DNA of 64,000 bases from an uncultured Candidatus Saccharibacteria bacterium (GTDB taxonomy: Bacteria; Patescibacteriota; Saccharimonadia; Saccharimonadales; AWTP1-31). Both the position numbers and the translations under genes were made by a program. Shown here piece after piece: positions 2,165-53,400 of this stretch. The stretch's first letter is position 1; every line of letters starts with the position of its first letter. The stretch spans positions 1,835 through 65,834 of the forward strand of contig CAZHBD010000001.1 in assembly GCA_964530555.1 (NCBI GenBank), given 5' to 3'. The notes under the pieces are model-generated. The model was given only the letters and a program-made list of their open reading frames with translations, did no database searches and was not told where the DNA came from.

Positions 2165-3532
2165 TTACGCATACAACCGCTCCTTAATTTCGGTGATCGC
2201 AGAGCGAATATCTGCATCAAGTGCTGACTCTTTCTCGATTTTTTCAACCGAGTGAATAGCCGTGGTGTGATCTTTGCGACCCAACTCCTTTGCTATTTTA
2301 GGGAAACTGAGATGCAATTCACTACGGAGCATATACATCGCAATCTGTCGCGGTACAACAATATCTTTGTCGCGCTTTGGACCTAAAATGTCATCCATAG
2401 ATACCGAAAAATGTTTTGCTGTTCGCTCAATGATTTGTTTAGCGCTCACGTGTTTTGGTCTGCTCTTCGCGCCCCCCATGAGAGTGGTGGCGAGCCGCAG
2501 GTCTGGCTCAAGTCCGCGCATCTCACAAAACGCCAATAACTGATTAAGGGCACCCTCTAATTCGCGGATATTGGTAGGCACATTGGTGGCCAAGTAATCA
2601 ACAACATCCGGCGACAGCGTTATGCCGTGGCTTGTAGCTTTGGTCTGAACAATTGCGCACCGTGTCTCGAAATCGGGGTTTTGCATGTCGATGCTCATTC
2701 CCCAAGCGAAACGACTGCGCAAGCGGTCTTCCAGGGTTGGTATTTCTTTTGGTGGTTTGTCACTACTGATAATGATTTGCTTATTAGCTTGATGTAGTGC
2801 GTTAAAAGTATGAAAAAATTCTTCCTGGGTTTTTTCTTTGCCGGCAATAAATTGCATGTCATCAATGATTAAAACATCGGCGGTGCGATAAAAACCCGCA
2901 AAGTCTGTGTTCTTTTTATATCTAATTGCGTCGAGGAACTCCTGGATAAATTGTTCGGTAGAAATATACACAACGTGAGCATCTTGGTTGCGAGATAGAA
3001 TGGCGTTACCTACAGCCTGAATAAGATGGGTTTTACCAATGCCAACACCTCCATACAGGAATAGTGGATTGTACTTAGTCCCCGGCTGCGTTGCTACTGC
3101 CTGACAAGCGGCATATGCCAGTTCGTTACCTGAACCAACGATAAAGTTCTCAAATGTATAGCGCTCGTTCAAACCTTGCCGATAGCTGTGGCGCAAAGTG
3201 CTTGATGATTTACGGTTATCACTTGCTGTAGTTTCGTGAGGGTTTGCGGTAATTAGTACTGGCTCGTCAATAGTTTTTTTCTGCGATCCAGCAGAATGAA
3301 TTTTGAACTGTATCGATTTGGGCGAAACGCCGTTCTTTTGCAACACTTCCGTAATTAGTTGGTTAAACTTGCGCTCGAGCTGATTCTTTATAAACACGTT
3401 TGGGACACCAACAACCAATACGCCATCTTTATAACGAAGCAAGCGGGTGTTTTTAAACCAAGTGATAAAGCTCGCTCGTGAAACCGAGAGCTCTATCTCA
3501 CCCAACACTGCTTGCCATAATCCGTCGCTCAC
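2165..3532 (-). CDS. dnaA: Chromosomal replication initiator DnaA (start moved to GTG 3532; the track's longest ORF reaches 3589)
   Basis: AAA+ Walker A GGVGIGKTHL, LIIDDMQF, and the C-terminal DNA-binding helix region HTTAIHSVEKI. GTG at 3532 is preceded by GGAG 5 nt upstream. A DnaA box (3580-3588) lies inside the longer N-terminal extension. Confidence 0.9.
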   Translation of the reverse strand: MSDGLWQAVLGEIELSVSRASFITWFKNTRLLRYKDGVLVVGVPNVFIKNQLERKFNQLITEVLQKNGVSPKSIQFKIHSAGSQKKTIDEPVLITANPHETTASDNRKSSSTLRHSYRQGLNERYTFENFIVGSGNELAYAACQAVATQPGTKYNPLFLYGGVGIGKTHLIQAVGNAILSRNQDAHVVYISTEQFIQEFLDAIRYKKNTDFAGFYRTADVLIIDDMQFIAGKEKTQEEFFHTFNALHQANKQIIISSDKPPKEIPTLEDRLRSRFAWGMSIDMQNPDFETRCAIVQTKATSHGITLSPDVVDYLATNVPTNIRELEGALNQLLAFCEMRGLEPDLRLATTLMGGAKSRPKHVSAKQIIERTAKHFSVSMDDILGPKRDKDIVVPRQIAMYMLRSELHLSFPKIAKELGRKDHTTAIHSVEKIEKESALDADIRSAITEIKERLYA

Positions 3533-3579
3533 ACCTTCTCCCTTTGCTGTAAGAAGAATTCTATAGAAAAAAAGCAGAC

Positions 3580-3726
3580 TTTTCCACACCCGAAGTCTTC
3601 ACCGCGACAAAATTGATAAAAACTACATGCAACAGAGTAAAAATTATCCACAACCTAAAACCCCATCTGGTAATCTGTGGAAAATACTTGGATTAGCGTG
3701 GAAAAGTTGTTAAAATTTGTGGGGTA
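3580..3726. promoter_or_regulatory. Putative oriC segment I / dnaA control region: DnaA-box cluster between dnaA and rpmH
   Basis: TTTTCCACA 3580-3588; perfect TTATCCACA 3644-3652; TGTGGAAAA 3676-3684; CGTGGAAAA 3697-3705; a weak TGTGGGGTA 3718-3726. Confidence 0.6.
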
Positions 3727-3773
3727 AATATTGTTAATTTGACTGTGTATTACAGACAACAAAGGACTTTTCT

Positions 3774-3911
3774 GTGCCAAAACGAACTTATCAACCAAAG
3801 AAGCGCCAACGTGCAAAAGAACATGGCTTTTTAAAACGCATGGCAACCAAAGCCGGTCGCCGGGTATTAAAGAGCCGACGACTTAAAGGACGCGTCCGTC
3901 TGTCGCATTAA
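3774..3911 (+). CDS. rpmH: 50S ribosomal protein L34
   Basis: Below the track's size cutoff. My translation from GTG 3774 is (M)[44 protein letters not shown], 45 aa, with stop TAA at 3909-3911. AAAGGA lies upstream. Canonical position before rnpA. Confidence 0.9.
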
Positions 3912-3925
3912 AGACAAGGCCTGTA

Positions 3926-4318
3926 GTGCTTGGTCGCCAACATCGTTTCCACGGCTATACTAGCCTGAACTACGTGTATAAGCACGGGACTACGGTGCGT
4001 GATGATGCGATTAGTTTGCGGATCGCAGCTAATGCTCGTCGTGCTGACTATCGCTGTGCGGTGGTAGTTAGCAAAAAAACCAACAAGTCGGCGGTTGGTC
4101 GAAACAGAATCCGACGACGTATTTATGAGATTGTCCGCCATCGGTTAAGAGCGTCGTCACCACCGATAGACTTAGTCGTAACGGTGCACCGGCCGGATGT
4201 CGCCGCCATGTCTACTGTTGAGCTAGACGGCCGGCTCGGCAGACTTCTGCAAAAAGCTCTTACTGCCGCAAATAACAAAGCACACGGTCATGCTACTATT
4301 AATAGACAGGAGAACTAA
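3926..4318 (+). CDS. rnpA: Ribonuclease P protein component
   Basis: 130-aa basic protein with SKKTNKSAVGRNRIRRRIYE (RNase P protein RNR-type motif). Lies between rpmH and yidC. Confidence 0.85.
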   Translation: MLGRQHRFHGYTSLNYVYKHGTTVRDDAISLRIAANARRADYRCAVVVSKKTNKSAVGRNRIRRRIYEIVRHRLRASSPPIDLVVTVHRPDVAAMSTVELDGRLGRLLQKALTAANNKAHGHATINRQEN

Positions 4319-5235
4319 TGTTTACAGCGCTTATCGTTAAACCAATCTTCAATTTACTTGTTCTTATCTACGCCTTGTTGCCAGGCCACAACTTTGGCCT
4401 GAGCATTATCATTTTTACTGTTTTGGTCCGACTGTTAATGTGGCCGCTGGTCAAGAAGCAGCTACACCAAGCAAAAGCAATGCGCGAACTGCAGCCCGAG
4501 CTTAAGCGTATCAAAGCCGCAGCTAAGGGCGACCGGCAGAAAGAATCGCTAATGATGATGGAGTTGTACAAGGAGCGCGAGATCAATCCGTTTGCGAGCA
4601 TTGGTTTGCTGATTGTTCAGATACCAATTTTCATCGGGCTATATAGTGGCTTGCACCGTATCGTGAACGATACGAATGCGCTTATTACCTTCTCCTACAG
4701 CTGGGTGCATAATCTGAGCTGGCTCAAGGCGCTTGCCGCTGATATTGGTCGTTTTGATAGTACGCTCTTGGGCGTCGTCGATTTGAGCCGGGCAGCGATT
4801 GGTAAAACTGGCGGTATATACTGGCCAGCTATGATCATTGTGATTGCCAGTGCTGTTGTCCAATACTTCCAAGCAAAGCAGCTAATGCCTAATGATAAAG
4901 AGCGACGTAGTCTGCGCTCCATATTAAAAGATGCTGGGCAGGGCAAGCAGGCTGATCAGTCTGAAGTACAGGCTTCGATGGGCCGCATAACACAGTTTAT
5001 GCTACCAGTGTTCATTTTCTTGGTTACAGTTAACATCGCTTCGGCTCTTTCGCTCTACTGGCTTACCAGCGGTCTTGTGGCATTCATTCAGCAATCACGT
5101 GTGCTAAGCCAGGACAAGGCAGAGTTGGCAACTGCAACCGATTCAAAAAGTAAGATTACTATTGAGGCTGAAGTCCTGCCTCCTAAAACCAAAACCAAAA
5201 CCTCTAAATCAAGGAGTAAACGGAGGAAGCGCTAG
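4318..5235 (+). CDS. yidC: Membrane protein insertase YidC (short Gram-positive-type form)
   Basis: 305 aa with multiple TM segments, MRELQPELKRIK and KERE-INPF motifs, and a lysine-rich C-terminal tail. Its start overlaps the rnpA stop (TAATG). Confidence 0.9.
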   Translation: MFTALIVKPIFNLLVLIYALLPGHNFGLSIIIFTVLVRLLMWPLVKKQLHQAKAMRELQPELKRIKAAAKGDRQKESLMMMELYKEREINPFASIGLLIVQIPIFIGLYSGLHRIVNDTNALITFSYSWVHNLSWLKALAADIGRFDSTLLGVVDLSRAAIGKTGGIYWPAMIIVIASAVVQYFQAKQLMPNDKERRSLRSILKDAGQGKQADQSEVQASMGRITQFMLPVFIFLVTVNIASALSLYWLTSGLVAFIQQSRVLSQDKAELATATDSKSKITIEAEVLPPKTKTKTSKSRSKRRKR

Positions 5236-5690
5236 TGGAAGAGTCGATTCTTTATGCAAAAAAATACCTAGAAGACATTTTGTCATTTTTTGGTTTGAAC
5301 ACCGATGTCTACGCCACCAATAGCGATGATGAAGTAATCGAACTGCACGTGCCGAGCACACACCTAAACGGCTTTTTGATTGGACATAACGGCGATACTA
5401 TGCGGGCAATGCAATATATGGTGAGCACGGCGCTCAAGAACAATGGTCACGAAGTGACGCGCGTAAGTGTGGATATCGCCGACTACAAAAAAGGTCGTGC
5501 CGATCGACTCAGTGAGAAGGCAAAAGAGTGGATGGAAGCGGTGCAGAAAACCGGCAAAGAAAAGGCCTTAGAGCCAATGAACGCAGCTGACCGGCGTACA
5601 ATTCACAAGCTCGCCAGTGATTACGGCTTAACGACCGAGTCTGTTGGCGAGGGCCGCGAACGACACATTGTCATCAGACCAGTATCCTAA
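5235..5690 (+). CDS. jag: Jag/KhpB-type RNA-binding protein (KH + R3H domains)
   Basis: 151 aa. The C-terminal R3H-like sequence is RRTIHKLASDYGLTTESVGEGRERHIVI. Canonical position after yidC; the GTG start overlaps the yidC stop. Confidence 0.8.
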   Translation: MEESILYAKKYLEDILSFFGLNTDVYATNSDDEVIELHVPSTHLNGFLIGHNGDTMRAMQYMVSTALKNNGHEVTRVSVDIADYKKGRADRLSEKAKEWMEAVQKTGKEKALEPMNAADRRTIHKLASDYGLTTESVGEGRERHIVIRPVS

Positions 5691-5708
5691 AACCTAAGAG
5701 ACTGGCGG

Positions 5709-6809
5709 CTAACTGGCGTTGTTGCCTGTTATGTCGTTGTAGACCTCGAGCGTCTGTTGCGCCATACGTTGCCATGAGTAATGCGCCGCCTGTTTTCTGC
5801 CGGCTTTGACAAGTCTTCTCGCCAGCTCGGGCTTACGGAGAACGCCATCGGTTCTTTTGGCGATATCTGTCGTATCGGTGGGGTCAAAGTAGACTGCAGC
5901 CTCGCCGTATACTTCAGGTAAGCAGGTGGCGTTACTGCTGACTACTGGTGCTCCATGTAACATGGCTTCTAGGCCTGGTAGACCAAACCCTTCGCTCAGT
6001 GAGGGGAAGATGTAGGCCTTGGTATGCTCGTAAAGCCAGCGCACCTGAGTATCGGGAAGAAAACCGGTGAATATTACATCAGCAATATTGAGCTTCTTAA
6101 CATATTTTTCGAGCAGACGATAATTGGCGTCCCTTTTTCCAACAAGAACAAGCTTTAGATCAGGGTGCGATTGTTTGAGAATGGCGAAAGCTGCTATCAA
6201 GCGGTTGAGATTCTTGTGAGGATTGGGGCGGCCAACATACATGATGAACGGGCTGTTTTCGAGCTCAGGCACAATCTCCGGTTTATCGGCTAATGGATCC
6301 GCCGACTCAAGAGTCACGACAATCTTGCGGCTGTTAATTCGGGCGAAACGAGCCAGATCCTCTTTAACCCACTGCGTGGGGGTTAGAACAAAGGCTGCTT
6401 TATGTGCTGCGTAACGGATGCTAAAACGATACACTATGCGCTTCAGTCGAAACAGTAACCAGTTTTTGGCAGGATTGCCAAAGCGTGCTGTAGTCAGGTC
6501 GTGGACGGTGGTAATCGTTTTGCCCCGATACAACAGTGGTTGCTGCGGGAAGGCAAAATGAACAAGATCAGGTTGGAGTGCTCGCAATTGCTTCAAAAAA
6601 CCTAGCTGTTCCGCGAAAGTGAACTCTTTGTACGGGCAGGCAACGCCGGAGAAGTTTTTGTTATGTGGTTTCCACCCCTCGAGGTCAGCCGGTTTGAGCA
6701 AAACTGTATAGCGATGTTGGTGATCAATTTTTTGTAGATAATGCAGTAGTCGCTCTACGTACCGACCACTACTAGTGCGTAGCTCACGAGCGTCAATCAC
6801 AATATGCAT
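5709..6809 (-). CDS. Glycosyltransferase, GT4 family
   Basis: 366 aa with the C-terminal GT-B signature FPSLSEGFGLPGLEAMLHGAPVVSS. Confidence 0.8.
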   Translation of the reverse strand: MHIVIDARELRTSSGRYVERLLHYLQKIDHQHRYTVLLKPADLEGWKPHNKNFSGVACPYKEFTFAEQLGFLKQLRALQPDLVHFAFPQQPLLYRGKTITTVHDLTTARFGNPAKNWLLFRLKRIVYRFSIRYAAHKAAFVLTPTQWVKEDLARFARINSRKIVVTLESADPLADKPEIVPELENSPFIMYVGRPNPHKNLNRLIAAFAILKQSHPDLKLVLVGKRDANYRLLEKYVKKLNIADVIFTGFLPDTQVRWLYEHTKAYIFPSLSEGFGLPGLEAMLHGAPVVSSNATCLPEVYGEAAVYFDPTDTTDIAKRTDGVLRKPELARRLVKAGRKQAAHYSWQRMAQQTLEVYNDITGNNAS

Positions 6810-7976
6810 TTATATCTCCTTCTCTGCGGTTATTTCCTGGATCGTTTTGGCCACTTCATGAGCGACATTCTGCCAATCAAAACGCTGTAGGTTTTGGCGA
6901 CTTCTTCGAGCATAATCTCGACGCAAATCCCCTGATGTAAGGAGTTTTTCGAGCGCTTTGGCAATAGAATTAGGGTTTTTAGGATCAAAATATAGTGCGC
7001 TGTCTCCAGCGACTTCGTGCAGGACCGGTATATCACTCACTGCTACCGGCAGATTATATGCCGCTGCCTCAAGCACCGGCATGCCAAAACCTTCGTAAAC
7101 CGACGGCAATACAAAACAAGTGGCATTCGAGTATAGCGCTGCTTTCTCGGCGTTTGTGACGTAGCCGGTTTGGATGACTTGCAAGCCGGCAGCCTGGGCC
7201 TCAGTAATAGCGCTCAAAATCGTTTCATCGCGCCAACCTTTGCCTCCGACAAGTACGAGCGAATAGGTACTACGTAGATTGTCTGGAAGTGCACGATATG
7301 CTTTGATCAGATTTACCAGGTTCTTACGAGGCTCAATAGTGCCAACATATAGCAGGTAGTGCTTGGCTTTAATGCCTTTTGACAAGATTGTTTGGGGTAA
7401 GCTAGACCGCTTTGGCTGGTGGGCAGGCGGAGGGATGTGGGCAATAGTAATGCGGCCTGCGAAGTTGGGAAAGTAGTGCTCCAGGCGCTGTTTGGTGAAG
7501 GCCGATATGGTCAGTAGGCCGGATGATCGACGGATACTGGGCCTCAGCAGTTTTTGTAAGTAGACGAGATTTTTCTCTTGGACAAATTCAGGATGGTCAT
7601 AACACCCTAGGTCATGTACTGCAAGCAACGAAGGAGTTTTGCGTAGTGTGGGCAGTGAAACGAAGTTAGGGAACAGATGAAAATCATATTTTCGCCAGAC
7701 GAGCAACTCTATAGGAACTTGCCAACCAAAACGTCGCGCCAGCAGCGGCAAAAATATACCAGGGAAGAATCTAACTGGTTTTAGATGAACACTACTCGGC
7801 AAATTGAAAGACGGGCGTTTTCTACCTAAAAAGTTAAAGTAATAGCCAGTTAGCTCGAGATCGTCACCTTGGTGTTGGGCAAGGGAAGATATCAGCCCTT
7901 CGGTAAAAAAGCCGACCCCTGACTGGCTACTGAGTAGCGAACTAGCATCAAACAATACGCGCACCGGCTGTTTCAT
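6810..7976 (-). CDS. Glycosyltransferase, GT4 family
   Basis: 388 aa with LPSVYEGFGMPVLEAAAYNLPVAVSD. Abuts the next GT4 gene with no gap. Confidence 0.8.
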   Translation of the reverse strand: MKQPVRVLFDASSLLSSQSGVGFFTEGLISSLAQHQGDDLELTGYYFNFLGRKRPSFNLPSSVHLKPVRFFPGIFLPLLARRFGWQVPIELLVWRKYDFHLFPNFVSLPTLRKTPSLLAVHDLGCYDHPEFVQEKNLVYLQKLLRPSIRRSSGLLTISAFTKQRLEHYFPNFAGRITIAHIPPPAHQPKRSSLPQTILSKGIKAKHYLLYVGTIEPRKNLVNLIKAYRALPDNLRSTYSLVLVGGKGWRDETILSAITEAQAAGLQVIQTGYVTNAEKAALYSNATCFVLPSVYEGFGMPVLEAAAYNLPVAVSDIPVLHEVAGDSALYFDPKNPNSIAKALEKLLTSGDLRRDYARRSRQNLQRFDWQNVAHEVAKTIQEITAEKEI

Positions 7977-36720: not shown

Positions 36721-36787
36721 AAGTCTTCCGAGCAGAAGTGCCCATCTTTTTTGACGCCCTCTGCTCGCCGAGCATGAGGGTATTTTC

Positions 36788-38323
36788 TTGAACCAGGCAA
36801 CTGCCGAGATTTTGAATCACGCTGAGTCATCGGCAGTCGCCGCCGCGCCGGACTTGCGACTAGTTCCTAATGAGCCCCGGCGTTTCTTGCTGCTTGATTC
36901 TGTACCGGAAATAGCCCAGGCAGCCGAACGGGCAGAGGTGCAAGCCCGGCAAACGATCGACGATAATATGCAGCTGTTGCGTGACGGCCGTTTCGATGAA
37001 GTCTTACCGGTAATTGACGCGCTTGGTACGGGCAAGCGCGTCACCGAAGTACAGAGCAGCCCTGAGCGTTTTTTGCGGCATAGGGCACTTGAGGAAGATT
37101 GTCGACGATTGTTCGGTGAGGCCAAGCGCAAGTTACGGCCCGAGCTTTTCCCAAAGACTGAGCAACAGTATGACCAGCGAACAGAAGATTTTTACTTCGG
37201 AAGCCTATCTATTGGGGACATGATTCAGCGCAGTCTAACAGCAGTCGCCGAAAAACCGCAACAAGAAGTAAGAATTATTGAGGCTCGAGAACATGCTCGC
37301 TCGCGGGCAATTGGTCGCATGATTATGCCCCGCGAGGTCGAGATTCAGCCTGTCGAAAATGAAGCCCATGCTATTACTGTTTCGCAGTGCCCCGACTATG
37401 TCATTGATCATTTTAAAGATAAACCCGATTCAAATAAGTATGCGGGTTACGTACCTAAAATTGCTAAATGGGTGATACGCGATCTGTCCTTTGACCGCAC
37501 AAATTTGCGAGCTTTTCAGGAGCAAGCGGCAATCTCAGGCGAATACATTACTAACGAAGTTATTAATGAAGCGTTTCAAGTTATGGGGCTGACCCGGTCT
37601 GGTGAGCATTACTCCAAGAGTGAGATTCAAGATATGCAGTTTGGCGTGGAGGGTGCTTTTGACGTGCTGGAATTCGTGGAGCTGTGCGATATGTTGGCAA
37701 GCCAAAAAACTGGCCTAAATATCTTCCTGGGTGAAGTGGTCGGTGCGGATGATCCGAAAGATTACACGCAGTTTCGCGCTGAGGCGCAACAACGTTACGA
37801 GGCTACAAACGAACAGGCTGAAGAGCTTGCCGATTACATTATGGATCTGGTGGAGCGGGGTGTAGACTCCTGGGCGGCCGACAAACTGGTAGAAGACAAA
37901 GTTAAACAAATGCTGCTTGACGAGGTGCGACAGAACCCTGATCTGGCGTTAGAAATGTTTGACGAAGCAACGTGGCGGGGTATCCATGAAGTGCACGCCC
38001 TTGAAGCGCGTGGCGACTGTAAAGCAGCTGAAGCACGTTGGGCTGAAGTGCTCAAAAACGCGCCAACTCCCGGGTTTTGTGGAGCGGGTAGTTGTGGGCT
38101 TGAGAGCGTTGCGTCGAGTAGTGCAGAAGGTCGAAGAGCTATCGCTCTAGGACTGGATGCCATTAGCCCTGATGAACTCATTCATGATACCGAGCGGGCG
38201 TGCCCGAGTTGTAGTGAATTTAAGGTCTACTATGACAAGAATGGGAGTAAGGCTTGTACAGGGTGTGGCAAAACTGAAATAAAACTCGGATATAGCAAAA
38301 GTAAAGAGACTTCAGATGAGTAA
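36788..38323 (+). CDS. Hypothetical 511-aa soluble protein with a C-terminal zinc ribbon
   Basis: TTG start 7 nt after GAGGG. No TM segment or signal peptide by eye. The C-terminus has FCGAGSCG and CPSC-x14-CTGC. No family recognised. Confidence 0.75.
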   Translation: MNQATAEILNHAESSAVAAAPDLRLVPNEPRRFLLLDSVPEIAQAAERAEVQARQTIDDNMQLLRDGRFDEVLPVIDALGTGKRVTEVQSSPERFLRHRALEEDCRRLFGEAKRKLRPELFPKTEQQYDQRTEDFYFGSLSIGDMIQRSLTAVAEKPQQEVRIIEAREHARSRAIGRMIMPREVEIQPVENEAHAITVSQCPDYVIDHFKDKPDSNKYAGYVPKIAKWVIRDLSFDRTNLRAFQEQAAISGEYITNEVINEAFQVMGLTRSGEHYSKSEIQDMQFGVEGAFDVLEFVELCDMLASQKTGLNIFLGEVVGADDPKDYTQFRAEAQQRYEATNEQAEELADYIMDLVERGVDSWAADKLVEDKVKQMLLDEVRQNPDLALEMFDEATWRGIHEVHALEARGDCKAAEARWAEVLKNAPTPGFCGAGSCGLESVASSSAEGRRAIALGLDAISPDELIHDTERACPSCSEFKVYYDKNGSKACTGCGKTEIKLGYSKSKETSDE

Positions 38324-42755: not shown

Positions 42756-44315
42756 ATGGAAGCCGTTTACGCTTTTCAGGATAAAATTCACGAACTTGCC
42801 CAGATTAAAGATTACGTGGGAGTTTCTTCACGTACCGATGTTTTAGAGTGCCCCGAAACTGCAGCTGTGCTACATGAGATGGAGACGCTAGTCACTGAAT
42901 CTCCTGAAATTGTTGACTTTTACGCTGGCGCTATCAAAAGATATAGAGAAGGTGACGCTGAAAGCATAGCCTCCGAGCTAGCGATCATCAAAGACCGTGT
43001 GGAATTAATGGCTAGTGATGACCTGTTCACGAAATCACAAGAAGCAAAACTAAAAACCAAGATTTCATCTGGTGAGATAGTTAAGGAAGAAGCAGAGCTA
43101 TTCTTTTCTATGTTTAAACGAGTCATCCCGAAGCAGCAACTACCAGGCGCTTCTGCTAGGCCAACTCTACGATCAACAGCAAAACGCCGTGGCCCTAACC
43201 AGGCACGTACTTTGGATCTGACTATTGAGCCGCACGGCGGAATTCGTATTAATGGCAAGTTTTTACGTGCTCTGTCTCCTGCGCAAAAGGTAATCATCTT
43301 GAGTGGGCTGGCTAAGGGAGAGGGCTTTCGCAACAATGAAATTTATCGTTCTGAAGAATTTGCAAGGGCTGCAGATATGCGTGAAGCTGACGAATCAGAG
43401 TTGCGGGCAACGTATGACGAAGTATTCAAAAGTCTTGTTTTGTATCTGAAAGAAAGCCGCTTTGGGCGTTTGGTAGATGCTAAACGAAAACCAGGTGAAA
43501 AAAAGCACATTATCTCGGCAGATAGCATTACCGATTTGCGCTCTAGCAGTGAGCCAGCCAAGCCCGCCAAAATAGTAACGCCCACCGAACTGGTTCAGGC
43601 TACTCAGCCCGGCCGCTTCTACGAAAATTCTAAAGACGACGAAAACCCCACACTTGCAGATGCCGAGAAGGCAACCGATAATGGTTTTAGTGAAGATCTT
43701 CTGCAAGATGCGCATACATGCTTACGCAACATGGTTGCCGAACATGGCGGAGTTAAACGTCGCCAAGCAGTAGACCATTTAAGTGGTAAGTTTGGTCTGG
43801 ATGTTGATCGAGCACGGGCTTTGGTTACGGCAGTATACAAGCTTGAGCAGGAAGATGAAGCTTCGCAGTTCCGCCAAGTAAAAGAAGGTGGCGCAAAATG
43901 GTTTAAGCCATATCGTGCATCTGATCACGAACCATTAGATGAAACGCCCAAGCTATTTGGTGATTATTTCGACGGTAGTCTTGATGAGCTGCGAGCACGG
44001 TATGGGAATGTGACGGGGTTGTTGCCTGAATATGTCAATTTTGAACGTGGCATCATCCAACTAACAGGAAACGAGCGAGTATTGCTCCAATTCTTCATGG
44101 ACAATGGTATACGCAAGGCAATCTCCGAAAAAGCAGTTATTAGTGAACTAAAACAGCAGGGCATAGAAATAACCAAAGAGCAGATCCGAGAGTCGGTCCG
44201 AGTTGTTAATGCATTGTATGGCAGAGACTTCATGCTGAGCCTTGGACCGGCCAGACGACAGGGTGCAGCCAAAGGCCTACGGGTTCAGCGCATTGGCTCA
44301 TTTATTGGCGAATAA
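42756..44315 (+). CDS. Hypothetical protein (519 aa)
   Basis: Long ORF, charged, no TM segment. No recognisable motif. Confidence 0.7.
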   Translation: MEAVYAFQDKIHELAQIKDYVGVSSRTDVLECPETAAVLHEMETLVTESPEIVDFYAGAIKRYREGDAESIASELAIIKDRVELMASDDLFTKSQEAKLKTKISSGEIVKEEAELFFSMFKRVIPKQQLPGASARPTLRSTAKRRGPNQARTLDLTIEPHGGIRINGKFLRALSPAQKVIILSGLAKGEGFRNNEIYRSEEFARAADMREADESELRATYDEVFKSLVLYLKESRFGRLVDAKRKPGEKKHIISADSITDLRSSSEPAKPAKIVTPTELVQATQPGRFYENSKDDENPTLADAEKATDNGFSEDLLQDAHTCLRNMVAEHGGVKRRQAVDHLSGKFGLDVDRARALVTAVYKLEQEDEASQFRQVKEGGAKWFKPYRASDHEPLDETPKLFGDYFDGSLDELRARYGNVTGLLPEYVNFERGIIQLTGNERVLLQFFMDNGIRKAISEKAVISELKQQGIEITKEQIRESVRVVNALYGRDFMLSLGPARRQGAAKGLRVQRIGSFIGE

Positions 44316-44323
44316 AGAATAGG

Positions 44324-44980
44324 TTATTTCTTCGACTGGGCGTCTTTGATGGCTTGGTCGATGAGCTTGCTAAAACCGTCAAGATCACGCGGAGAGTCCT
44401 CAATCTTTTTGCCCTGCAAGAAAAAGGTTGGTGTAGAGTTCACTTCTAGTCGTTGGCCCTCGGCAACATCCGCGTTGATTATATCGTTGACCTCGCTGCT
44501 CTGGTAATCTTGCTTAAACTTCTCAAGATCTAGGTTGAGCTGTACTGCGTAGCCTTCAAACGTCTTGGTTGGGTCACTAGTGCTCTCCCAGGTCTTTTGG
44601 CCTTCATACAATAGATCGTGCATCTCCCAGAATTTGCCCTGCTTGTCAGCGGCTTCTGCGGCCCGAGCGCCGGCCCGAGCGTTTTGGTGGATTTGCTGTA
44701 ATGGGAAGTTTCGGAACTGGAACTGAATGTCATTTTTGTACTTTTCGACCACTTGCTTCACAACCGGGTAGTAAGCGCCACAGGCGGGACATTGATAATC
44801 GCCGTATTCAACAAGTGTTACTTTTTTGGTGTTTGCACCTTCGACATGATTACTGAGCTTTGAACTCTTGCTTGAACCATTATTGCTTGTTGATGGGCTC
44901 GACGTATCGCGTGTAAACCAAAAGATACCACCTAGTGCGATAATGATCGCTGCCAAAACTGCTACAAACTGTTTGCTCAT
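44324..44980 (-). CDS. DsbA-family thiol:disulfide oxidoreductase, membrane-anchored
   Basis: YGDYQCPACGAYYP thioredoxin CxxC site and an N-terminal TM (FVAVLAAIIIALGGIFWF). Start set at MSKQF (44980), preceded by AAGGGAG. Confidence 0.75.
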   Translation of the reverse strand: MSKQFVAVLAAIIIALGGIFWFTRDTSSPSTSNNGSSKSSKLSNHVEGANTKKVTLVEYGDYQCPACGAYYPVVKQVVEKYKNDIQFQFRNFPLQQIHQNARAGARAAEAADKQGKFWEMHDLLYEGQKTWESTSDPTKTFEGYAVQLNLDLEKFKQDYQSSEVNDIINADVAEGQRLEVNSTPTFFLQGKKIEDSPRDLDGFSKLIDQAIKDAQSKK

Positions 44981-45101
44981 ACGTTCTCCCTTAGTGCTTC
45001 TTAGTGTAGCGCATTGGACAGAAGTGTTCAAAAGTGCGGTTCAGATGCTTTGCAGTGAGCTAACTTGTAAGTCGATGTTGCAGGACTTATACTCTGTAAC
45101 C

Positions 45102-45482
45102 ATGAGCAATATAAAGGTTGCCTTGATTGAAGATGATAAGGCGATCGTGGAAATGTATCTGATGCGCTTTAACCTCTCGGGAGGATATGAGGTAAAAGTC
45201 GCCAATGACGGAGCTTCTGGGCTAGAACTACTCAAATCTTTTGAACCTGACGTCATACTACTCGATATGATGATGCCAAAAATGTCAGGCGTCGAGACAT
45301 TAACCAAGCTACGCAAACTTCCCAACGGCAAAAAGTATAAAGTGATTGCGCTGACAAATATGAAAGACGAAGACACGGTGGCTCAGATTCGCAAACTGGG
45401 GGTAGAAGACTACATCGTTAAGGCCGAACAAGCCCCGAGTGTTATAGAAGAACGTATCAAACGCGTAATCAATACCAACTGA
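45102..45482 (+). CDS. Stand-alone response-regulator receiver domain (CheY-like, no output domain)
   Basis: KVALIEDD...DVILLDMMMPKMSG...ALTN...KA. Start set at MSNIKV (45102). TTGTAA-N17-TATACT (45065-45093) lies 8 nt upstream. Confidence 0.8.
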   Translation: MSNIKVALIEDDKAIVEMYLMRFNLSGGYEVKVANDGASGLELLKSFEPDVILLDMMMPKMSGVETLTKLRKLPNGKKYKVIALTNMKDEDTVAQIRKLGVEDYIVKAEQAPSVIEERIKRVINTN

Positions 45483-45498
45483 ACACAAACAGTAGTCG

Positions 45499-45527
45499 TT
45501 TACAGCTAAATAAAGCATAAGTATAAT
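45499..45527 (+). promoter_or_regulatory. Candidate sigma70-type promoter (TTTACA-N17-TATAAT) for the histidine kinase gene
   Basis: TTTACA at 45499-45504 and TATAAT at 45522-45527. AGGTG SD lies before GTG at 45564. Confidence 0.5.
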
Positions 45528-45563: not shown

Positions 45564-48500
45564 GTGAAGAAGCGAATTATTGGGTTTAGTTTATTTCTCG
45601 TGACTTTCGTTGTTGTAGTCCTGGCGCACCCTTTGTCGGCAAAAGCCTATCCTCCAAATGGATTTCCTGGGGAACCTTTCGGTGGGAGCGGTATGGACGG
45701 ATACGGTATTCCAACTAATCCGTTGCTGGTTGCCAATTGTGAAGACCTGCAAAATGTAAACCTCAATCTCGATCGATACTATGTTCTGCAACAAAACATT
45801 GATTGTACGGATTCGGCAACCTGGAATGGTGGAAAAGGATTTATTCCTATCGGGCTTAACGCTGATGGGTCTGTTGAAGGGGCATTTATCGGACATCTTG
45901 ACGGGCGTGGTCACACAATCTCTAACCTCTACATTGATCAATCAAGTCTAAACGTTGCTGATGGTGATCGCAACGTTGGCCTCTTCGCGAGTGCCATAGG
46001 GGCAGATATCATGAATGTCTATCTAAATAACGCTCATATTATTGGTTCATCAAGTGGCGGCCGAACCGGAGGGCTTGCAGGGCAAATCTCTGGGAGCAGG
46101 ATAGATCGTGTTCATTTTGACGGTGATGTAGAAGGCGGGGACTGTAGCACGGTTCAATCTCTGGGAGGGATTACCGGGAGATATATTGTGGATGGTCCTG
46201 ATGATGGGGCATACAATGCTATCAAATACAGTTCAACCAAGGGTTCGATTACGGTCACAGGTATAAATTGTGGCTCATATGAGGTGTTCGCTGGGGGCAT
46301 CGTAGGTAGTGAAACTGATGGTGACCTGCATCTTTTGAATAACTATTCACAAATGGATATTACGCTTGACGGCAATGCTACGGAAGATTGCGTTAACAAT
46401 TGTCGCAGTGTTGGCGGGATTATCGGTTTTGTCGGACAACACGTTGAAATATTTCGTAACTACGCCACAGGAATTCTCGCTATTTCGGGAGATACATCGC
46501 AGTACTTGAGCTACCAGGTAGCTGGCCTCAGTGGCGCCAACAGTACTGAACCACTAATTAGCCAGTCATTCGCCGCAACCGCCTTTTCGTTCTCAGACTG
46601 TGGAATCAGTTGTGGCGCATTGCCTCGAGAAGTGGCCGGAATTGCCATTGCAAACATAGACGAATCAGAGGCCTTACTTTCTAATCGATACGATGTTGGT
46701 GTTGCAGGACAGGGCGATGGGCTGCCATGTATTTCTGGGGGGTTGGCTACCTGTGAAGGCCAAAATACGAGCGGCGTACCAAATGCCAGTCTATTTCAAA
46801 ATAATAATTCCGATTGGCCTATGCCAGATTGGGATTTTGATAACGTATGGGAGCTTACAGCTCAATATCCAGAGCTTACACAAGATGATAACGCTAACCC
46901 GACTCCGCCAGCAACTTTTGATGGGTCAACATATTCTGAAACCGAGATCACTTTAAACTGGTCAGCGCCAGCAACATATAATGGCTCAATAACCCATTAC
47001 TTTGTGACGTACAAACACCAAGGTGCAGCAGATTTTGATGGTGGATTTGTACTAGAAGGTGTAACCACTGGCATGAATGTTACCAACCTAGAGGCTGGGG
47101 TTACCTACGAGTTTTACCTTAGTGCTGAACAATCGGATGGCTACTGGAGTGATATGTCACCGATAAGTGTTAGAACGGGTACGGAGGGGTTCATTGGCAT
47201 AAGCAATTGTCAGGATCTGCAAGCTATAAATGAGGACTTGAATGGGAACTATGAGCTGCTTCAAAATCTGGACTGCGCTGACACAAGTTCATGGAACAGC
47301 GGAGCAGGATTTATGCCAATAGGTAGCTGTGACCAGACGGACCAATTTCAATTTACTGGAATTTTTGCTGGCAATAACTTTACAGTCTCAAACCTTTACA
47401 TAGACGTTTCTGGTTCAGATTGCTCTCTGGCGGCACCGATTGCCGCCGCCCAAGGTGCGCTCATCCAAGATGTAACGTTTGATAATAGCACCTTAATCAG
47501 TGACAAAGGGGCAGCAGGATTGATTGCTTCCGATAGATGCAGCGATATACACAACGTGCAACTTACTAACGTATTGATATCTGGTACGGCTGAGTTGATC
47601 GGAGGTTTAGTTGGGGCAGAAAAGTTAAGTCGTGACTGCGTTCAGTCCTTGATATCCGTAAGTGGGCTACTCGAATCTACAGATTTTGAAGATTTTCAAC
47701 AAATAATGGGCGGTTTGTATGGCACGATATCATCATCAAGCAGTAACCACGCTATTGCTGTCGAAAACGCCTATACCAATGTGCAGCTTGATGCTAGCGA
47801 TTCAACAATGAACAATGGAGTTTATGGAGGAATTGCTGGGATGATATTCACATCTAACCAAGACGCTGTCTCGTTTCAGGATGTATACGCTTCTGGGAGC
47901 TTGGTAAGAACGAACCTCGAAACAGTGCAAGGATCTTTGGCGGGCGGACTTATCGCTTTGTTTGTGACCAATAGTGGTGGCGAAAACAGCCTGACCGATA
48001 GTTTTGCGTACTTTGATTCCTCGCAGACAACCAATGTGACAGGCGGCCAAGTTATAGACGGGGGTGGTTTAGGATATATAACTGCACCAGGACCATCACT
48101 GGTAGTTGATAATACCTATTTCGATGCTGATGTTGCAGGTACCTCTGACTGCACATTTTTAGATGCCAGCGTCTGCACGGCAATTTCTGGAGATTCAGAG
48201 TACTTCTTTAATAACTCCACAAATGCACCGTTAGACCAGTGGGACTTTTCTGATGTATGGATGACCACAGAGACCTTACCGGTGTTTAGTGAAGAGGCGA
48301 CATCCACCCCTACCCTCATACCTGAATCACGACTGCAACACAATAATGGGACGATAAACCCCCTGATACCTGCCCGTGCTTTTTCGCCCAATAGTGCTGT
48401 GTCTCCCGATTCAGGCAAGATCACCAGTCTGCCTGCAGCTGGTTCAAACTTTGGACCCACACAAGGACAGCAGCCTACAGAAAGTGGTATTATAGCCAAA

Positions 48501-49922
48501 CTTAAGGAGTTGATTAATAAGATTCCTGCGCCACTCTTGCGAAGCTTCCCTTACATCGTTGTTGGTCTCATGGGGCTATCTGCATTGGCGATGTTTATAG
48601 AAATGCTGCGACAGGCAGCTCGGCTCAAAGAGCTTAATTTGCTGATACAGAAGCAGGCAAGCGTTGCCGAAGAGCGCGATACCTTCTGGCACCTGGCTGC
48701 CAATTATTTGCGTGCGCCAATCACGTTGCTGATGGGAGGGGTTGACTTGTTGGCCTCACCGAAGGTGGCGCTGAGCCTCGGTGCTGGTGTGGCTGCTAAC
48801 GCAACAATACCGTCCCAGTCGGTGAATCCAGAGCTAACCGCAAAAATCACCAAGTTGGTCACTAACATGCAGACCAAAGTATCAGACATCATGGACCAAA
48901 TTGAACACAGTAAGTCGCTCCAGGAGATTAGCTGGCCCAAGTCACCTAACTCACGACGGCTCATTGCTAGTTGGCGCTTTTGGTTACCACTAACAATGGC
49001 GGCGATCTTGCTAATCTTTACTAATTATGTAACCAAGAACTATCGGCACTTAGAAGTGAGCACGTTAAGTATTTTGATACAAATATTGCTCTTCGTGTTA
49101 GTAGCAACGTTGGTCTATTGGGCTGTGCAGGCGCTTGGCTTAGTTCAAAATAAGCGCAAGCAGGCTGAAGAGAAACTATCAAGGCAAGAAGCCGCCCTTG
49201 ATAAGGCTCGCATCGCGCTTATTGGTAAGACGGCAGAAGTACTCGATGATGACGTCAGCAAACTCGAAAAAATGCTAGGTCAATTACCAGCTAATGAGCA
49301 GTCTGTACCAATTCTGCATGAAGGTGCTCGTCGGTTGCGACAGATGGTAGACAGCTTCCAGCTGCTAATACTGGCGCAGAATAAAAAACTTCAAAAAGTA
49401 TCGTCTTATCAAGCAACTGTTGGTCTTAAGGACGTTCTGACAGAATGCTTAGATGAGTTGGCGGCTGAGATCGAAGCAAAACAGCTCAAAGTTCTTATGC
49501 CTGAACTTGGTCGTGAAGTTGTTCGTGGTAGTGAAAAATTGGCACGTCAGGTAATAGGTAGCGTACTTGCTAACGCTGTTGATTTTAGCCCCAAGAAGGG
49601 CAAGTTAGAAATAGATTTTGTCGCCCTACATGACAAAACCAGGCTGACAATTACCGATCATGGGCCTGGTGTCAGCAAGGAACAACAGGCGCACATGTTC
49701 CAGCTGTTTACCAAAGCTGACGGCCAGGATGCCCTGCAGTTAGATCACGGTGGTCTAGGGGTGGACCTGTATCTCGACCGAGAGATTATGGACTACTTGG
49801 GCGGGACTATCTCGATCGATACCGGAGACCATGGTACTTCTGTAACAATCACGTGGCCTGAGCCCAATGCCCACCATAGTGACGTGGTTAGTCCTGCTTC
49901 AGCGGAAGCCTATCTTGTTTAA
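45564..49922 (+). CDS. Sensor histidine kinase with a ~970-aa extracytoplasmic region (2 GLUG-type modules + FN3), 3 TM segments, tandem DHp-like regions and an HATPase domain
   Basis: Signal peptide. Duplicated modules begin NCEDLQNVNLNLDRYYVLQQNIDC and NCQDLQAINEDLNGNYELLQNLDC, with GGLAG/GGLVG GLUG motifs. FN3-like segment at ~46900-47185. H-box FWHLAANYLRAPIT (His codon 48690-48692). C-terminal DHGPGV...GGLGVDL ATP-lid motifs. Confidence 0.8.
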   Translation: MKKRIIGFSLFLVTFVVVVLAHPLSAKAYPPNGFPGEPFGGSGMDGYGIPTNPLLVANCEDLQNVNLNLDRYYVLQQNIDCTDSATWNGGKGFIPIGLNADGSVEGAFIGHLDGRGHTISNLYIDQSSLNVADGDRNVGLFASAIGADIMNVYLNNAHIIGSSSGGRTGGLAGQISGSRIDRVHFDGDVEGGDCSTVQSLGGITGRYIVDGPDDGAYNAIKYSSTKGSITVTGINCGSYEVFAGGIVGSETDGDLHLLNNYSQMDITLDGNATEDCVNNCRSVGGIIGFVGQHVEIFRNYATGILAISGDTSQYLSYQVAGLSGANSTEPLISQSFAATAFSFSDCGISCGALPREVAGIAIANIDESEALLSNRYDVGVAGQGDGLPCISGGLATCEGQNTSGVPNASLFQNNNSDWPMPDWDFDNVWELTAQYPELTQDDNANPTPPATFDGSTYSETEITLNWSAPATYNGSITHYFVTYKHQGAADFDGGFVLEGVTTGMNVTNLEAGVTYEFYLSAEQSDGYWSDMSPISVRTGTEGFIGISNCQDLQAINEDLNGNYELLQNLDCADTSSWNSGAGFMPIGSCDQTDQFQFTGIFAGNNFTVSNLYIDVSGSDCSLAAPIAAAQGALIQDVTFDNSTLISDKGAAGLIASDRCSDIHNVQLTNVLISGTAELIGGLVGAEKLSRDCVQSLISVSGLLESTDFEDFQQIMGGLYGTISSSSSNHAIAVENAYTNVQLDASDSTMNNGVYGGIAGMIFTSNQDAVSFQDVYASGSLVRTNLETVQGSLAGGLIALFVTNSGGENSLTDSFAYFDSSQTTNVTGGQVIDGGGLGYITAPGPSLVVDNTYFDADVAGTSDCTFLDASVCTAISGDSEYFFNNSTNAPLDQWDFSDVWMTTETLPVFSEEATSTPTLIPESRLQHNNGTINPLIPARAFSPNSAVSPDSGKITSLPAAGSNFGPTQGQQPTESGIIAKLKELINKIPAPLLRSFPYIVVGLMGLSALAMFIEMLRQAARLKELNLLIQKQASVAEERDTFWHLAANYLRAPITLLMGGVDLLASPKVALSLGAGVAANATIPSQSVNPELTAKITKLVTNMQTKVSDIMDQIEHSKSLQEISWPKSPNSRRLIASWRFWLPLTMAAILLIFTNYVTKNYRHLEVSTLSILIQILLFVLVATLVYWAVQALGLVQNKRKQAEEKLSRQEAALDKARIALIGKTAEVLDDDVSKLEKMLGQLPANEQSVPILHEGARRLRQMVDSFQLLILAQNKKLQKVSSYQATVGLKDVLTECLDELAAEIEAKQLKVLMPELGREVVRGSEKLARQVIGSVLANAVDFSPKKGKLEIDFVALHDKTRLTITDHGPGVSKEQQAHMFQLFTKADGQDALQLDHGGLGVDLYLDREIMDYLGGTISIDTGDHGTSVTITWPEPNAHHSDVVSPASAEAYLV

Positions 49923-52518: not shown

Positions 52519-53400
52519 CTAGTCTTGACCAGGTTGTGGCCCAGTATGGCGTACCATGCTGGCAACTTTACTCCCGAAAAACTTAAGATGCGGGTGTTGC
52601 TCATGAATTTGTTCACAGAATTTAACGATATCTTCCACACGACCAGGTTTTGCCGCTCGTGTTAGGCCTAGCGCGCCCAACTCTTCAATAAGCAGTGTGC
52701 TGACAGTAATATCTCCCTCACCGCGTACCATTTGGTCCAGCTGAAGTGCTTTTCGAACCGCTAGACCAAGAAAGAAGGTATGAGCATCTTCCGGACCTGC
52801 TGGACGTGGGTGATCGCCAAGTTCGGTGGTAAAGTCCACTCCATTGCTTCGAAATAGGGCGGTTAAATATGCAGCACGTGCCGGCAAGTTGGTTCGATTA
52901 CGCAAATATTGTTTCTGAGCGGCTTCTTCGTCAGTGTTGCCGAGTGCAATGGTTTGCTTGATGCGCGCTTCGGTTATTCGTACTATTCGTGATTTAGCGT
53001 CGGTTACGGCTGCATCGGTAACATGCAGAGGTAGGCGTCCGTCTAAGGGCATGACTGCTTCGCTGAGCGTGAAGTCAACACTAGCGAATACGTCCTCAAT
53101 ACTTGCATACCTGCGTGGTTGGTTATATTCAGCATCATCTGGTGATAGTTGCTGCGACAGTTGAGTCAAAAGCTCCTCAGGGGCAGAGCTACCATAAGCA
53201 CAAATATCTATGTCGCGTACTGGCATCTGCAGCCCATGAGTTGCTTCTAAGAGTGCTGATCGTGCAGCTCCTCCATATATTACAATTCCGGGCTGCAGTG
53301 CGCCGACCAGTGCGACATCAAGTACAGCACTAACGCTGGCGGATGTTCGTGGGAATGTCTCAACAGTAAATTCTCTCAAAATCATTTTGCTACCATACAC
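52519..53400 (-). CDS. Pol-beta-superfamily nucleotidyltransferase, CCA-adding/poly(A) polymerase head-domain-like
   Basis: IYGGAARSALL...VRDIDI resembles GGxVRDxLL...DxD. DFTLSEAV resembles the RDFTINA motif. No recognisable tRNA-binding body. Confidence 0.45.
   Translation of the reverse strand: MYGSKMILREFTVETFPRTSASVSAVLDVALVGALQPGIVIYGGAARSALLEATHGLQMPVRDIDICAYGSSAPEELLTQLSQQLSPDDAEYNQPRRYASIEDVFASVDFTLSEAVMPLDGRLPLHVTDAAVTDAKSRIVRITEARIKQTIALGNTDEEAAQKQYLRNRTNLPARAAYLTALFRSNGVDFTTELGDHPRPAGPEDAHTFFLGLAVRKALQLDQMVRGEGDITVSTLLIEELGALGLTRAAKPGRVEDIVKFCEQIHEQHPHLKFFGSKVASMVRHTGPQPGQD

Follow-up and report, generated by a model that had tools for sequence, protein, structure and literature searches.

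The usual description of histidine kinases is that of homodimers whose histidine-bearing dimerization and histidine phosphotransfer (DHp) hairpin is fused directly to the catalytic ATP-binding (CA) domain, and the asymmetry of these dimers, together with the cis or trans course of their autophosphorylation, has long been debated. The kinase analyzed here is the product of an open reading frame (ORF) at positions 45564-49922 of a 64 kb stretch of Saccharibacteria DNA, which is the whole sequence analyzed and is referred to as the window. From the N-terminus it consists of a signal peptide, beta-helix module 1, a fibronectin type III (FN3) domain, beta-helix module 2, a first transmembrane helix (TM1), a first DHp hairpin (DHp1), a hairpin of two further transmembrane helices (TM2-TM3), a second DHp hairpin (DHp2) and HATPase_c. 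We favor, with modest confidence, the view that this protein functions as a sensor histidine kinase and belongs to a Saccharibacteria family not described before, in which DHp1 and DHp2 would form a mixed bundle and the histidine on DHp1 would be phosphorylated by the CA domain carried on DHp2.

Like the class I HisKA kinases (WalK/YycG, HK853, EnvZ), the window kinase has an HATPase_c domain with N, G1, F and G2 boxes and an extracellular sensor that a TM helix connects with the helix of the H-box. Both of its hairpins are homologous to HisKA, and DHp2 together with the CA domain aligns over its full length with the WalK and HK853 cores. Unlike in those kinases, the hairpin with the histidine is not attached to the CA domain, since a TM hairpin and a DHp devoid of histidine intervene; moreover, the residue following the histidine (H+1) is Tyr or Leu in the family instead of Glu or Asp, and in the clade of the window kinase the histidine is displaced by four residues. 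Judged from its sequence, the protein is homologous to the HisKA type and yet fails two of its defining features, namely a histidine-bearing HisKA domain adjacent to the CA domain and a canonical histidine followed by an acidic residue.

Other described systems share single elements of this layout. The intramembrane-sensing kinases BceS and LiaS resemble the C-terminal half of the window kinase (two TM helices with a very short loop, a DHp and a CA domain), but here DHp2 lacks the histidine and is preceded by an ectodomain of about 950 residues, a third TM helix and a histidine-bearing DHp, and no ABC transporter partner is encoded nearby. In the class II kinase CheA, as in the window kinase, the acceptor lies on a helical domain other than the DHp-like domain without histidine that bears the CA domain. 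On the other hand, the acceptor domain of the window kinase is a HisKA hairpin and not an HPt domain, the two domains are joined through the membrane, and P2 and P5 are absent; the Pfam scan of the window kinase gave no match to Hpt, H-kinase_dim or CheW, and CheA matched the DHp2+CA profile at the ATP-lid region only. DivL is also a kinase fold in which the canonical histidine is replaced and which works with a stand-alone receiver, but it has a Tyr at the histidine position and no relocated histidine, and it contains only one DHp, without an internal TM hairpin. That a helical bundle can be closed within one chain is known from monomeric HWE/HisKA_2 kinases such as EL346 (PMC10359499). In contrast to the EL346 type, the window kinase is a membrane protein, and its bundle would be completed by a duplicated DHp and not by a helix of the sensor domain. 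No Pfam or NCBIfam model and no paper in the searchable library was found that describes a kinase with the layout DHp-TM hairpin-DHp-CA, and literature searches on Saccharibacteria two-component systems and on tandem, second or duplicated DHp or HisKA domains returned nothing relevant.

The transmitter core and its histidine

The original prediction, made from the letters of this DNA, had described the layout in this one protein. A family profile covering TM1-DHp1-TM2-TM3-DHp2, with the catalytic domain omitted, was searched against 1.84 billion representative proteins (50% identity clusters) and matched 640 clusters at E <= 1e-3, 483 at E <= 1e-10 and 172 at E <= 1e-30, so that a family of at least 640 clusters shares the transmitter core. 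Most of the best 150 of the 640 matches span essentially the whole core and the remainder are fragments. This exhaustive search of representatives was used instead of a word-index search with the core profile, which gave two fragments only. Four full-length homologs (33-34% identity) share every part of the window kinase. A genome scan with one genome per species, which is biased because clade-specific and ectodomain patterns were used, located the core at 17 loci, all titled Candidatus Saccharibacteria, Saccharimonadota or "uncultured bacterium". As far as these sequences indicate, the membrane-split double DHp is a trait of a large family of sensor kinases, as yet without a name and known to date from Saccharibacteria only.

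The DHp1 profile matched best, among proteins of known structure, the DHp domains of kinases (9m08, E = 0.0028; KdpD, HK853 and WalK). Since the SHELRTPL box of kinases aligns with AANYLRAP of the window protein, the canonical histidine position is occupied by N1047 (codon aat, 48702-48704), and H1043 (codon cac, 48690-48692) lies four residues upstream. The motif FWHLAANYLRAP is invariant in an alignment of five full-length sequences, being the most conserved stretch of the protein, and is present with at most one conservative change in 40 of the best 150 representatives, which constitute the clade of the window kinase; all 40 have Asn at the canonical position. A box of the SHYLRTPLT type, with the canonical histidine, was found in DHp1 of 97 of the same 150, and distant members of the family also have His in the N1047 column (for example TSHYLNTPV and SHYLRTPLT).

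The distribution of the two states was determined in an alignment of 71 family sequences. The N1047 column contained His in 61 sequences and Asn in 10, and the H1043 column contained His in exactly 10; reading the family members sequence by sequence revealed that the 10 sequences with Asn-1047 are the FWHLAAN proteins. Every one of the 71 therefore has a histidine at exactly one of two positions that are one helical turn apart on the same face of the same helix. P1052 is present in all 71 and Y1048 in 70; the latter is the canonical H+1 column, so that the residue after the histidine is Tyr in the family, Leu in the clade of the window kinase, and in neither case Glu or Asp. From these alignments we conclude that DHp1, upstream of the TM hairpin, is the probable phospho-acceptor domain of the family. 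In the clade of the window kinase the acceptor histidine appears to have moved one turn toward the membrane, to H1043, with Asn at the old site and a resulting H-x3-N spacing.

A similar spacing is seen in the H-x-x-x-T/N phosphatase motif of HisKA and in the H-R-x-x-N box of HisKA_2/HWE. An assignment of DHp1 to HisKA_2/HWE was rejected, since the hairpin aligns as HisKA and neither the HisKA_2 nor the HWE model matched the window kinase at E <= 1. The HisKA model itself (PF00512) gave no match at E <= 1 in the Pfam scan of the window kinase and stayed below threshold on DHp1 in every family member tested; sub-threshold matches, where present, fell on DHp1. The tip loop of DHp1 varies in length and is poorly predicted by AlphaFold2 (AF2), with a predicted local distance difference test (pLDDT) of 61-64. 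A 4066-residue member of the family (L019, 5940-18137) carries a Ser/Thr-rich insertion of about 100 residues in this loop, and the insert at this tip of the window protein (residues 1067-1090) is shorter and poorly predicted.

DHp2 has the opposite character. The DHp2+CA profile matched solved kinases from helix 1 onward, with E = 1.2e-31 for WalK and E = 1.8e-29 for HK853, and placed E1225 (49236-49238) at the canonical histidine position. Column 1225 contained His in only 1 of the 71 sequences, and no column of DHp2 contained His in more than 14. The NCBIfam kinase models aligned only from residue about 1233-1256 onward, that is, with the last helix before the catalytic domain. A family member of 3100 residues (L016, 8001-14525) has a canonical histidine in both hairpins, AAHELQSHI in DHp2 and TSHYLNTPV in DHp1. 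Because this protein keeps AAHELQSHI, DHp2 descends from a real HisKA, and the double-histidine state may be ancestral. We conclude that DHp2 is a degenerate copy that carries the catalytic domain. An ARHELI histidine present in DHp2 of four homologs (P0002-P0005) was considered as a relic acceptor and rejected, since most of the family lacks it and its distance from the canonical position is eight residues.

The catalytic domain itself is complete. The N box (N1337), G1 box (D1365xGxG), F box and G2 box (G1396-G1399) were all found, and N1337, G1367, G1369, F1379, G1397 and G1399 are fully or almost fully conserved across the 71 sequences, indicating that the ATP-binding motifs are intact in the clade of the window kinase. 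The most conserved residues of DHp2 are R1216 in its first helix, alpha1' (62/71), and G1254 at the start of its second, alpha2' (69/71). R1216, which is roughly level with H1043 relative to the membrane, could be in contact with the phosphoryl group.

Topology, packing and mode of action

The TM helices were placed using Kyte-Doolittle (KD) hydropathy in 19-residue windows together with the helix boundaries of the AF2 model. A KD value above 1.5 was found for TM1 in 100%, for TM2 in 97% and for TM3 in 100% of the 71 family members, with a median of about 2.2-2.3 for TM2 and TM3. In front of TM1 lies a conserved juxtamembrane helix that contains P988, P996 and Y997, and the outside loop between TM2 and TM3 has about 6 residues. 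The mean number of Lys plus Arg in the 71 members was 3.7 after TM1, 2.6 before TM2, 0.8 in the TM2-TM3 loop and 4.2 after TM3. Of the Cys residues, 18 are in the ectodomain and 1 in the C-terminal 477 residues, and 12 of the 18 are invariant in the five-sequence full-length alignment. The Lys plus Arg and Cys distributions suggest that the ectodomain and the TM2-TM3 loop are outside and both DHp hairpins inside. In agreement with the pre-TM1 segment and the outer end of TM2 both being outside, direct coupling analysis (DCA) paired these two segments (987-1157 and 994-1149). Hydropathy, charge and Cys distribution thus predict that DHp1 is cytoplasmic.

Most of what the original prediction had said of the transmitter agrees with these results. 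TM1 and the TM hairpin were found where it had placed them, and the second DHp indeed lacks the histidine and is followed by HATPase_c. The two arrangements named beforehand as speaking against it, a single conventional HisKA directly before HATPase_c and an extracytoplasmic H-box region, were not observed, as the CA-adjacent hairpin has Glu at the histidine position and the predicted location of the H-box is cytoplasmic. The claim that the first DHp retains the phospho-acceptor pattern was correct only in part: the histidine codon is where it was reported, but the canonical histidine is now Asn and the invariant histidine lies at i-4.

The AF2 model of residues 976-1452, built with the 71 family sequences, had a mean pLDDT of 89.8 and a predicted template modeling score (pTM) of 0.82. 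In the numbering of the model, TM1 and the first helix of DHp1 (alpha1) form a nearly continuous helix (residues 14-89) with a single break at 45, and H1043 corresponds to residue 68; the second helix of DHp1 (alpha2) covers 114-139 and TM2 covers 162-185. TM3 and alpha1' form one continuous helix of 72 residues (192-263), which is followed by alpha2' (273-297) and then the catalytic domain. Foldseek searches with this core matched the DHp+CA cores of DivL (best), HK853, CusS and WalK over 225-250 columns with TM-scores of 0.62-0.73 relative to the target; in the model, matches of this length can only be to DHp2 and the catalytic domain. BceS (8g3a_D) was matched over 361 columns.

Contacts between the hairpins were analyzed by mean-field DCA of 150 non-redundant sequences (effective number of sequences, Meff, about 114). 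As a control, 10 of the 15 top alpha1-alpha2 pairs were antiparallel (sum of positions 2151-2162; background 0.23, p = 4e-4). Of the 25 top pairs that connect TM1+alpha1 with TM3+alpha1', 10 had an offset of 172-183 (background 0.157, p = 0.003, with the offset window chosen post hoc). The best pair overall was 1061-1258, between alpha1 and alpha2', and further alpha1-alpha2' pairs gather at the membrane-distal end. The two long helices would therefore run in parallel register, each with its returning partner, an arrangement that suggests a common four-helix bundle of DHp1 and DHp2, which could plausibly be a pseudo-dimer formed by a single chain. Judging from helix lengths, alpha2' would end about 23 residues below the membrane and so set the catalytic domain level with H1043 and N1047, which are 27-31 residues below it.

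A mode of action can be proposed on this basis. The disulfide-rich beta-helix/FN3 ectodomain would bind an extracellular or host-surface ligand, and the resulting movement of TM1 would act directly on the histidine-bearing helix alpha1. The TM2-TM3 hairpin would bring the chain back to the cytoplasm, where DHp2, without histidine, would carry the ATP-binding domain. With TM1+alpha1 and TM3+alpha1' side by side from the membrane onward, the four-helix bundle would mimic the homodimeric bundle of ordinary kinases, and the catalytic domain on DHp2 would phosphorylate the histidine of DHp1 in a "trans"-like reaction that would take place either inside a single chain or from one chain of a dimer to the other. 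The phosphoryl group would then pass on to D55 of the stand-alone receiver encoded next to the kinase gene. A bolder version, which we put forward only tentatively, is that of a single-chain pseudo-dimeric kinase in which a tandem duplication of the DHp, connected through the membrane by the TM hairpin, would take the place of the homodimeric bundle. One half would retain the phospho-acceptor alone and take up the signal from the TM helix of the sensor, and the other would retain the catalytic domain alone, so that the enzyme would be obligately asymmetric and could signal as a monomer, with the histidine of the window's clade relocated by one turn.

Several points weigh against a working kinase with a mixed bundle. 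Kinase activity is read from sequence for the family as a whole. Since the H+1 residue is Tyr or Leu and not the general-base Glu or Asp, the chemistry may be different or weak, and since the canonical histidine is absent, the clade of the window kinase could be kinase-dead. The Pfam HisKA score of DHp1 was sub-threshold throughout the members tested. An adjacent receiver gene is missing at three loci of the clade (L001, L006 and L008), where upstream sequence is present, and at all six distant loci. The packing of the bundle is deduced solely from helix continuity, pTM and coevolution; the DCA has low power with about 114 effective sequences, the offset window of its binomial test having been picked after the data were seen, and coevolution cannot tell contacts within a chain from those between chains, so that a domain-swapped dimer is equally compatible.

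Among the other explanations, the one that survives best, although we consider it unlikely, is a split as in CheA without an intrachain bundle, in which DHp2 would homodimerize and position the CA domain while DHp1 would be a separate tethered substrate comparable to CheA P1. The end-to-end alignment of DHp2 and the catalytic domain with dimeric kinase cores is in line with such an arrangement, as is the clear distinction between the histidine-bearing and the CA-bearing helical units, and the long DHp1 tip loop, poorly predicted and extended by the large insert in L019, suggests some autonomy of this hairpin. However, alpha1 coevolves with alpha1' in parallel register and also with alpha2', TM1 and TM3 coevolve in register too, and a pTM of 0.82 over a chain of 477 residues argues for a fixed mutual arrangement.

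Slightly less likely still is that the window's clade consists of pseudokinases, phosphatases or scaffolds in which H1043 is structural and the receiver is bound or dephosphorylated, as by DivL with DivK. Asn occupies the canonical position in 40 of 40 clade representatives, no acidic residue stands beside H1043, the top Foldseek match of the core is DivL, itself a kinase with a replaced histidine, and the receiver is a stand-alone domain of the DivK/CheY type. On the other hand, the Asn and His states are perfectly complementary, a pattern that drift after loss of function is not expected to yield, and the FWHLAANYLRAP block is the stretch of the protein that has changed least. This complete complementarity, together with the intact ATP-binding motifs of the clade, is the strongest argument against loss of function.

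An artefact, either a mis-assembled or fused gene or a soluble TM2-TM3 region in an ordinary kinase with a long helical linker, is highly improbable. In its favor, the genomes are metagenome-assembled, the TM call comes from hydropathy and AF2 helices, and Pfam reports fn3 and HATPase_c only. Against it, hundreds of clusters independent of one another show the same order of parts, which also recurs on many contigs obtained from different samples, TM2 and TM3 keep their hydropathy in nearly all of the 71 members, and the sole conserved histidine lies upstream of TM2-TM3.

Ectodomain, neighboring genes and feature coordinates

The features of the locus are collected in Table 1. The only Pfam matches on the whole kinase were those to fn3 and HATPase_c listed there.

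Table 1. Coordinates of the receiver gene, the kinase gene and the parts of the kinase in the 64 kb window
Feature	Position (nt)	Strand	Residues	Basis
Stand-alone receiver without output domain	45102..45482	+	126 aa	Pfam Response_reg E = 4.6e-23
Kinase ORF	45564..49922	+	1452 aa	GTG start; full-length homologs at 33-35% identity
Predicted signal peptide (MKKR, hydrophobic core, LSA-KA)	45564..45644	+	core 5-23	Hydropathy 2.36
Beta-helix module 1, Cys-rich, opening NCEDLQ...IDC	45726..46898	+	~55-445	AF2 pLDDT 87, short-strand solenoid; Foldseek
FN3 domain	46905..47150	+	448-529	Pfam fn3 E = 1.2e-11; Foldseek FN3, TM-score 0.8-0.88 (target-relative)
Beta-helix module 2, paralog of module 1	47196..48293	+	~545-910	BLASTP; AF2 model
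TM1	48546..48611	+	995-1016	KD 2.02; AF2 helix 14-44 of model
DHp1, HisKA-homologous hairpin, H-box FWH(1043)LAAN(1047)YLRAPIT	48612..48938	+		Profile, alignment, motif conservation
TM2, short outside loop, TM3	48972..49136	+	1137-1160 (TM2), 1167-1191 (TM3)	KD 1.75, 2.59; AF2 helices 162-185, 192-263
DHp2, HisKA-homologous hairpin continuous with TM3, without phospho-acceptor	49137..49388	+		DHp2+CA profile, 71-sequence columns
HATPase_c	49533..49865	+	1324-1434	Pfam PF02518 E = 4.7e-17; Foldseek matches to kinase cores

The two beta-helix modules open with NCEDLQ... from residue 58 (nt ~45735) and NCQDLQ... from residue 548 (nt ~47205), and align with each other at 28% identity over about 420 columns (BLASTP E = 1e-21). 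The AF2 model of ectodomain residues 28-911, built with 22 orthologs, had a mean pLDDT of 87.0 and a pTM of 0.75 and revealed two all-beta, solenoid-like modules, each opened by a small helical cap, with a beta-sandwich between them. The best Foldseek match was the IgA1 protease of Gemella haemolysans (7uvk, E = 4.2e-7, 435 columns), followed by the pneumococcal IgA1 protease (6xja), a GH28 parallel beta-helix (2uve) and many FN3 domains. In the Pfam scan of the window kinase, GLUG (PF07581) had no match and Peptidase_M26_N (PF05342) stayed below threshold (E = 0.04, 13.6 bits against a cut-off of 27.7); both domains were found in one homolog (P0005) and in non-kinase homologs that are large surface proteins. 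The ectodomain resembles the M26 IgA1 proteases and GLUG surface proteins in that its beta-helices are closest in fold to the N-terminal region of the IgA1 proteases, but the window protein has no protease domain and its modules are fused to a kinase. In fold and remote homology, the ectodomain can thus be described as adhesin- or IgA-protease-like.

For this part of the gene and its surroundings, the original prediction had given the extent of the ORF, a signal peptide, two paralogous modules separated by an FN3-like domain, and a receiver-only protein as the only nearby partner, and all of these were recovered. Its GLUG/IgA-protease label needs qualification, as the homologs carry these domains and the fold is similar to that of IgA1 protease, but Pfam GLUG does not match the protein itself. 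The remark that such an architecture is typical of adhesins and not of sensors does not hold inside this kinase family, where adhesin-like ectodomains are the rule.

The receiver has its functional residues in place (D11/D12 in the acidic pocket, the phospho-acceptor D55, T85 and K107), and apart from this gene and the kinase ORF no second receiver or second kinase was found in the 64 kb window. Orthologs of the receiver (E 1e-32 to 1e-56) adjoin the kinase gene at five other loci of the clade (L005, L010, L011, L012 and L021), which makes it the candidate partner. The spacer of 81 nt between the receiver and kinase genes contains a near-consensus sigma-70-like promoter at 45499-45527 (TTTACA, 17 nt spacer, TATAAT; 11/12), and the kinase may therefore have its own promoter. 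In a promoter and terminator scan of the region, promoter-like sites were rarer than in shuffled sequence, and the scan is little informative on operon structure.

Divergent from the receiver gene, a membrane-anchored DsbA-like thioredoxin is encoded at 44324-45031 on the minus strand (Thioredoxin_4 E = 5e-26, DSBA E = 2e-14). Because the kinase ectodomain is rich in Cys, this protein may be its folding helper, and its presence beside the kinase accords with the predicted topology. The wider neighborhood consists of cell-envelope and housekeeping genes, including LytR_cpsA_psr, BacA, a Na/H exchanger with TrkA_N, an archaeal-type AspRS, an amino-acid permease and a polysaccharide deacetylase. 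ORFs at 42756-44315 (519 aa; Pfam up to E = 1), 36755-38320 (522 aa) and 52519-53400 (293 aa; both at E <= 1e-4) had no Pfam family, and ARAGORN, run on all 64 kb of the window, detected neither a tRNA nor a tmRNA gene.

Variety of the family and its significance

The proteins of the family range from about 600 to 4656 residues. Instead of beta-helices, the ectodomains of other members contain NHL propellers, He_PIG or Big_13 Ig domains, or FN3, and this variety suggests one conserved transmitter joined to many surface domains. A metagenomic contig (L083) carries two tandem paralogs of about 617 residues (2878-4731 and 5001-6857) among the housekeeping genes for SerRS, AspRS and GreA, with no receiver nearby. 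Because Pfam HisKA stays below threshold in every member tested, the proteins of the family are annotated through HATPase_c alone, and annotation pipelines currently miss the acceptor domain.

A natural family in which asymmetry is hard-wired, with the histidine on one hairpin, the CA domain on the other and the membrane between them, would be a ready-made system in which to test the questions of asymmetry and of cis or trans autophosphorylation. It could show how the motion of a TM helix reaches the acceptor helix without passing the helix that bears the CA domain. The mutually exclusive exchange of His and Asn at positions one turn apart amounts to a natural test of acceptor placement and, if true, the relocated acceptor would reveal the latitude in position that the catalytic domain allows.

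Saccharibacteria are ultrasmall episymbionts that depend on contact with a host, and the family couples diverse adhesin-like ectodomains to one core. The members of this family are therefore candidates for host-surface or contact sensing.

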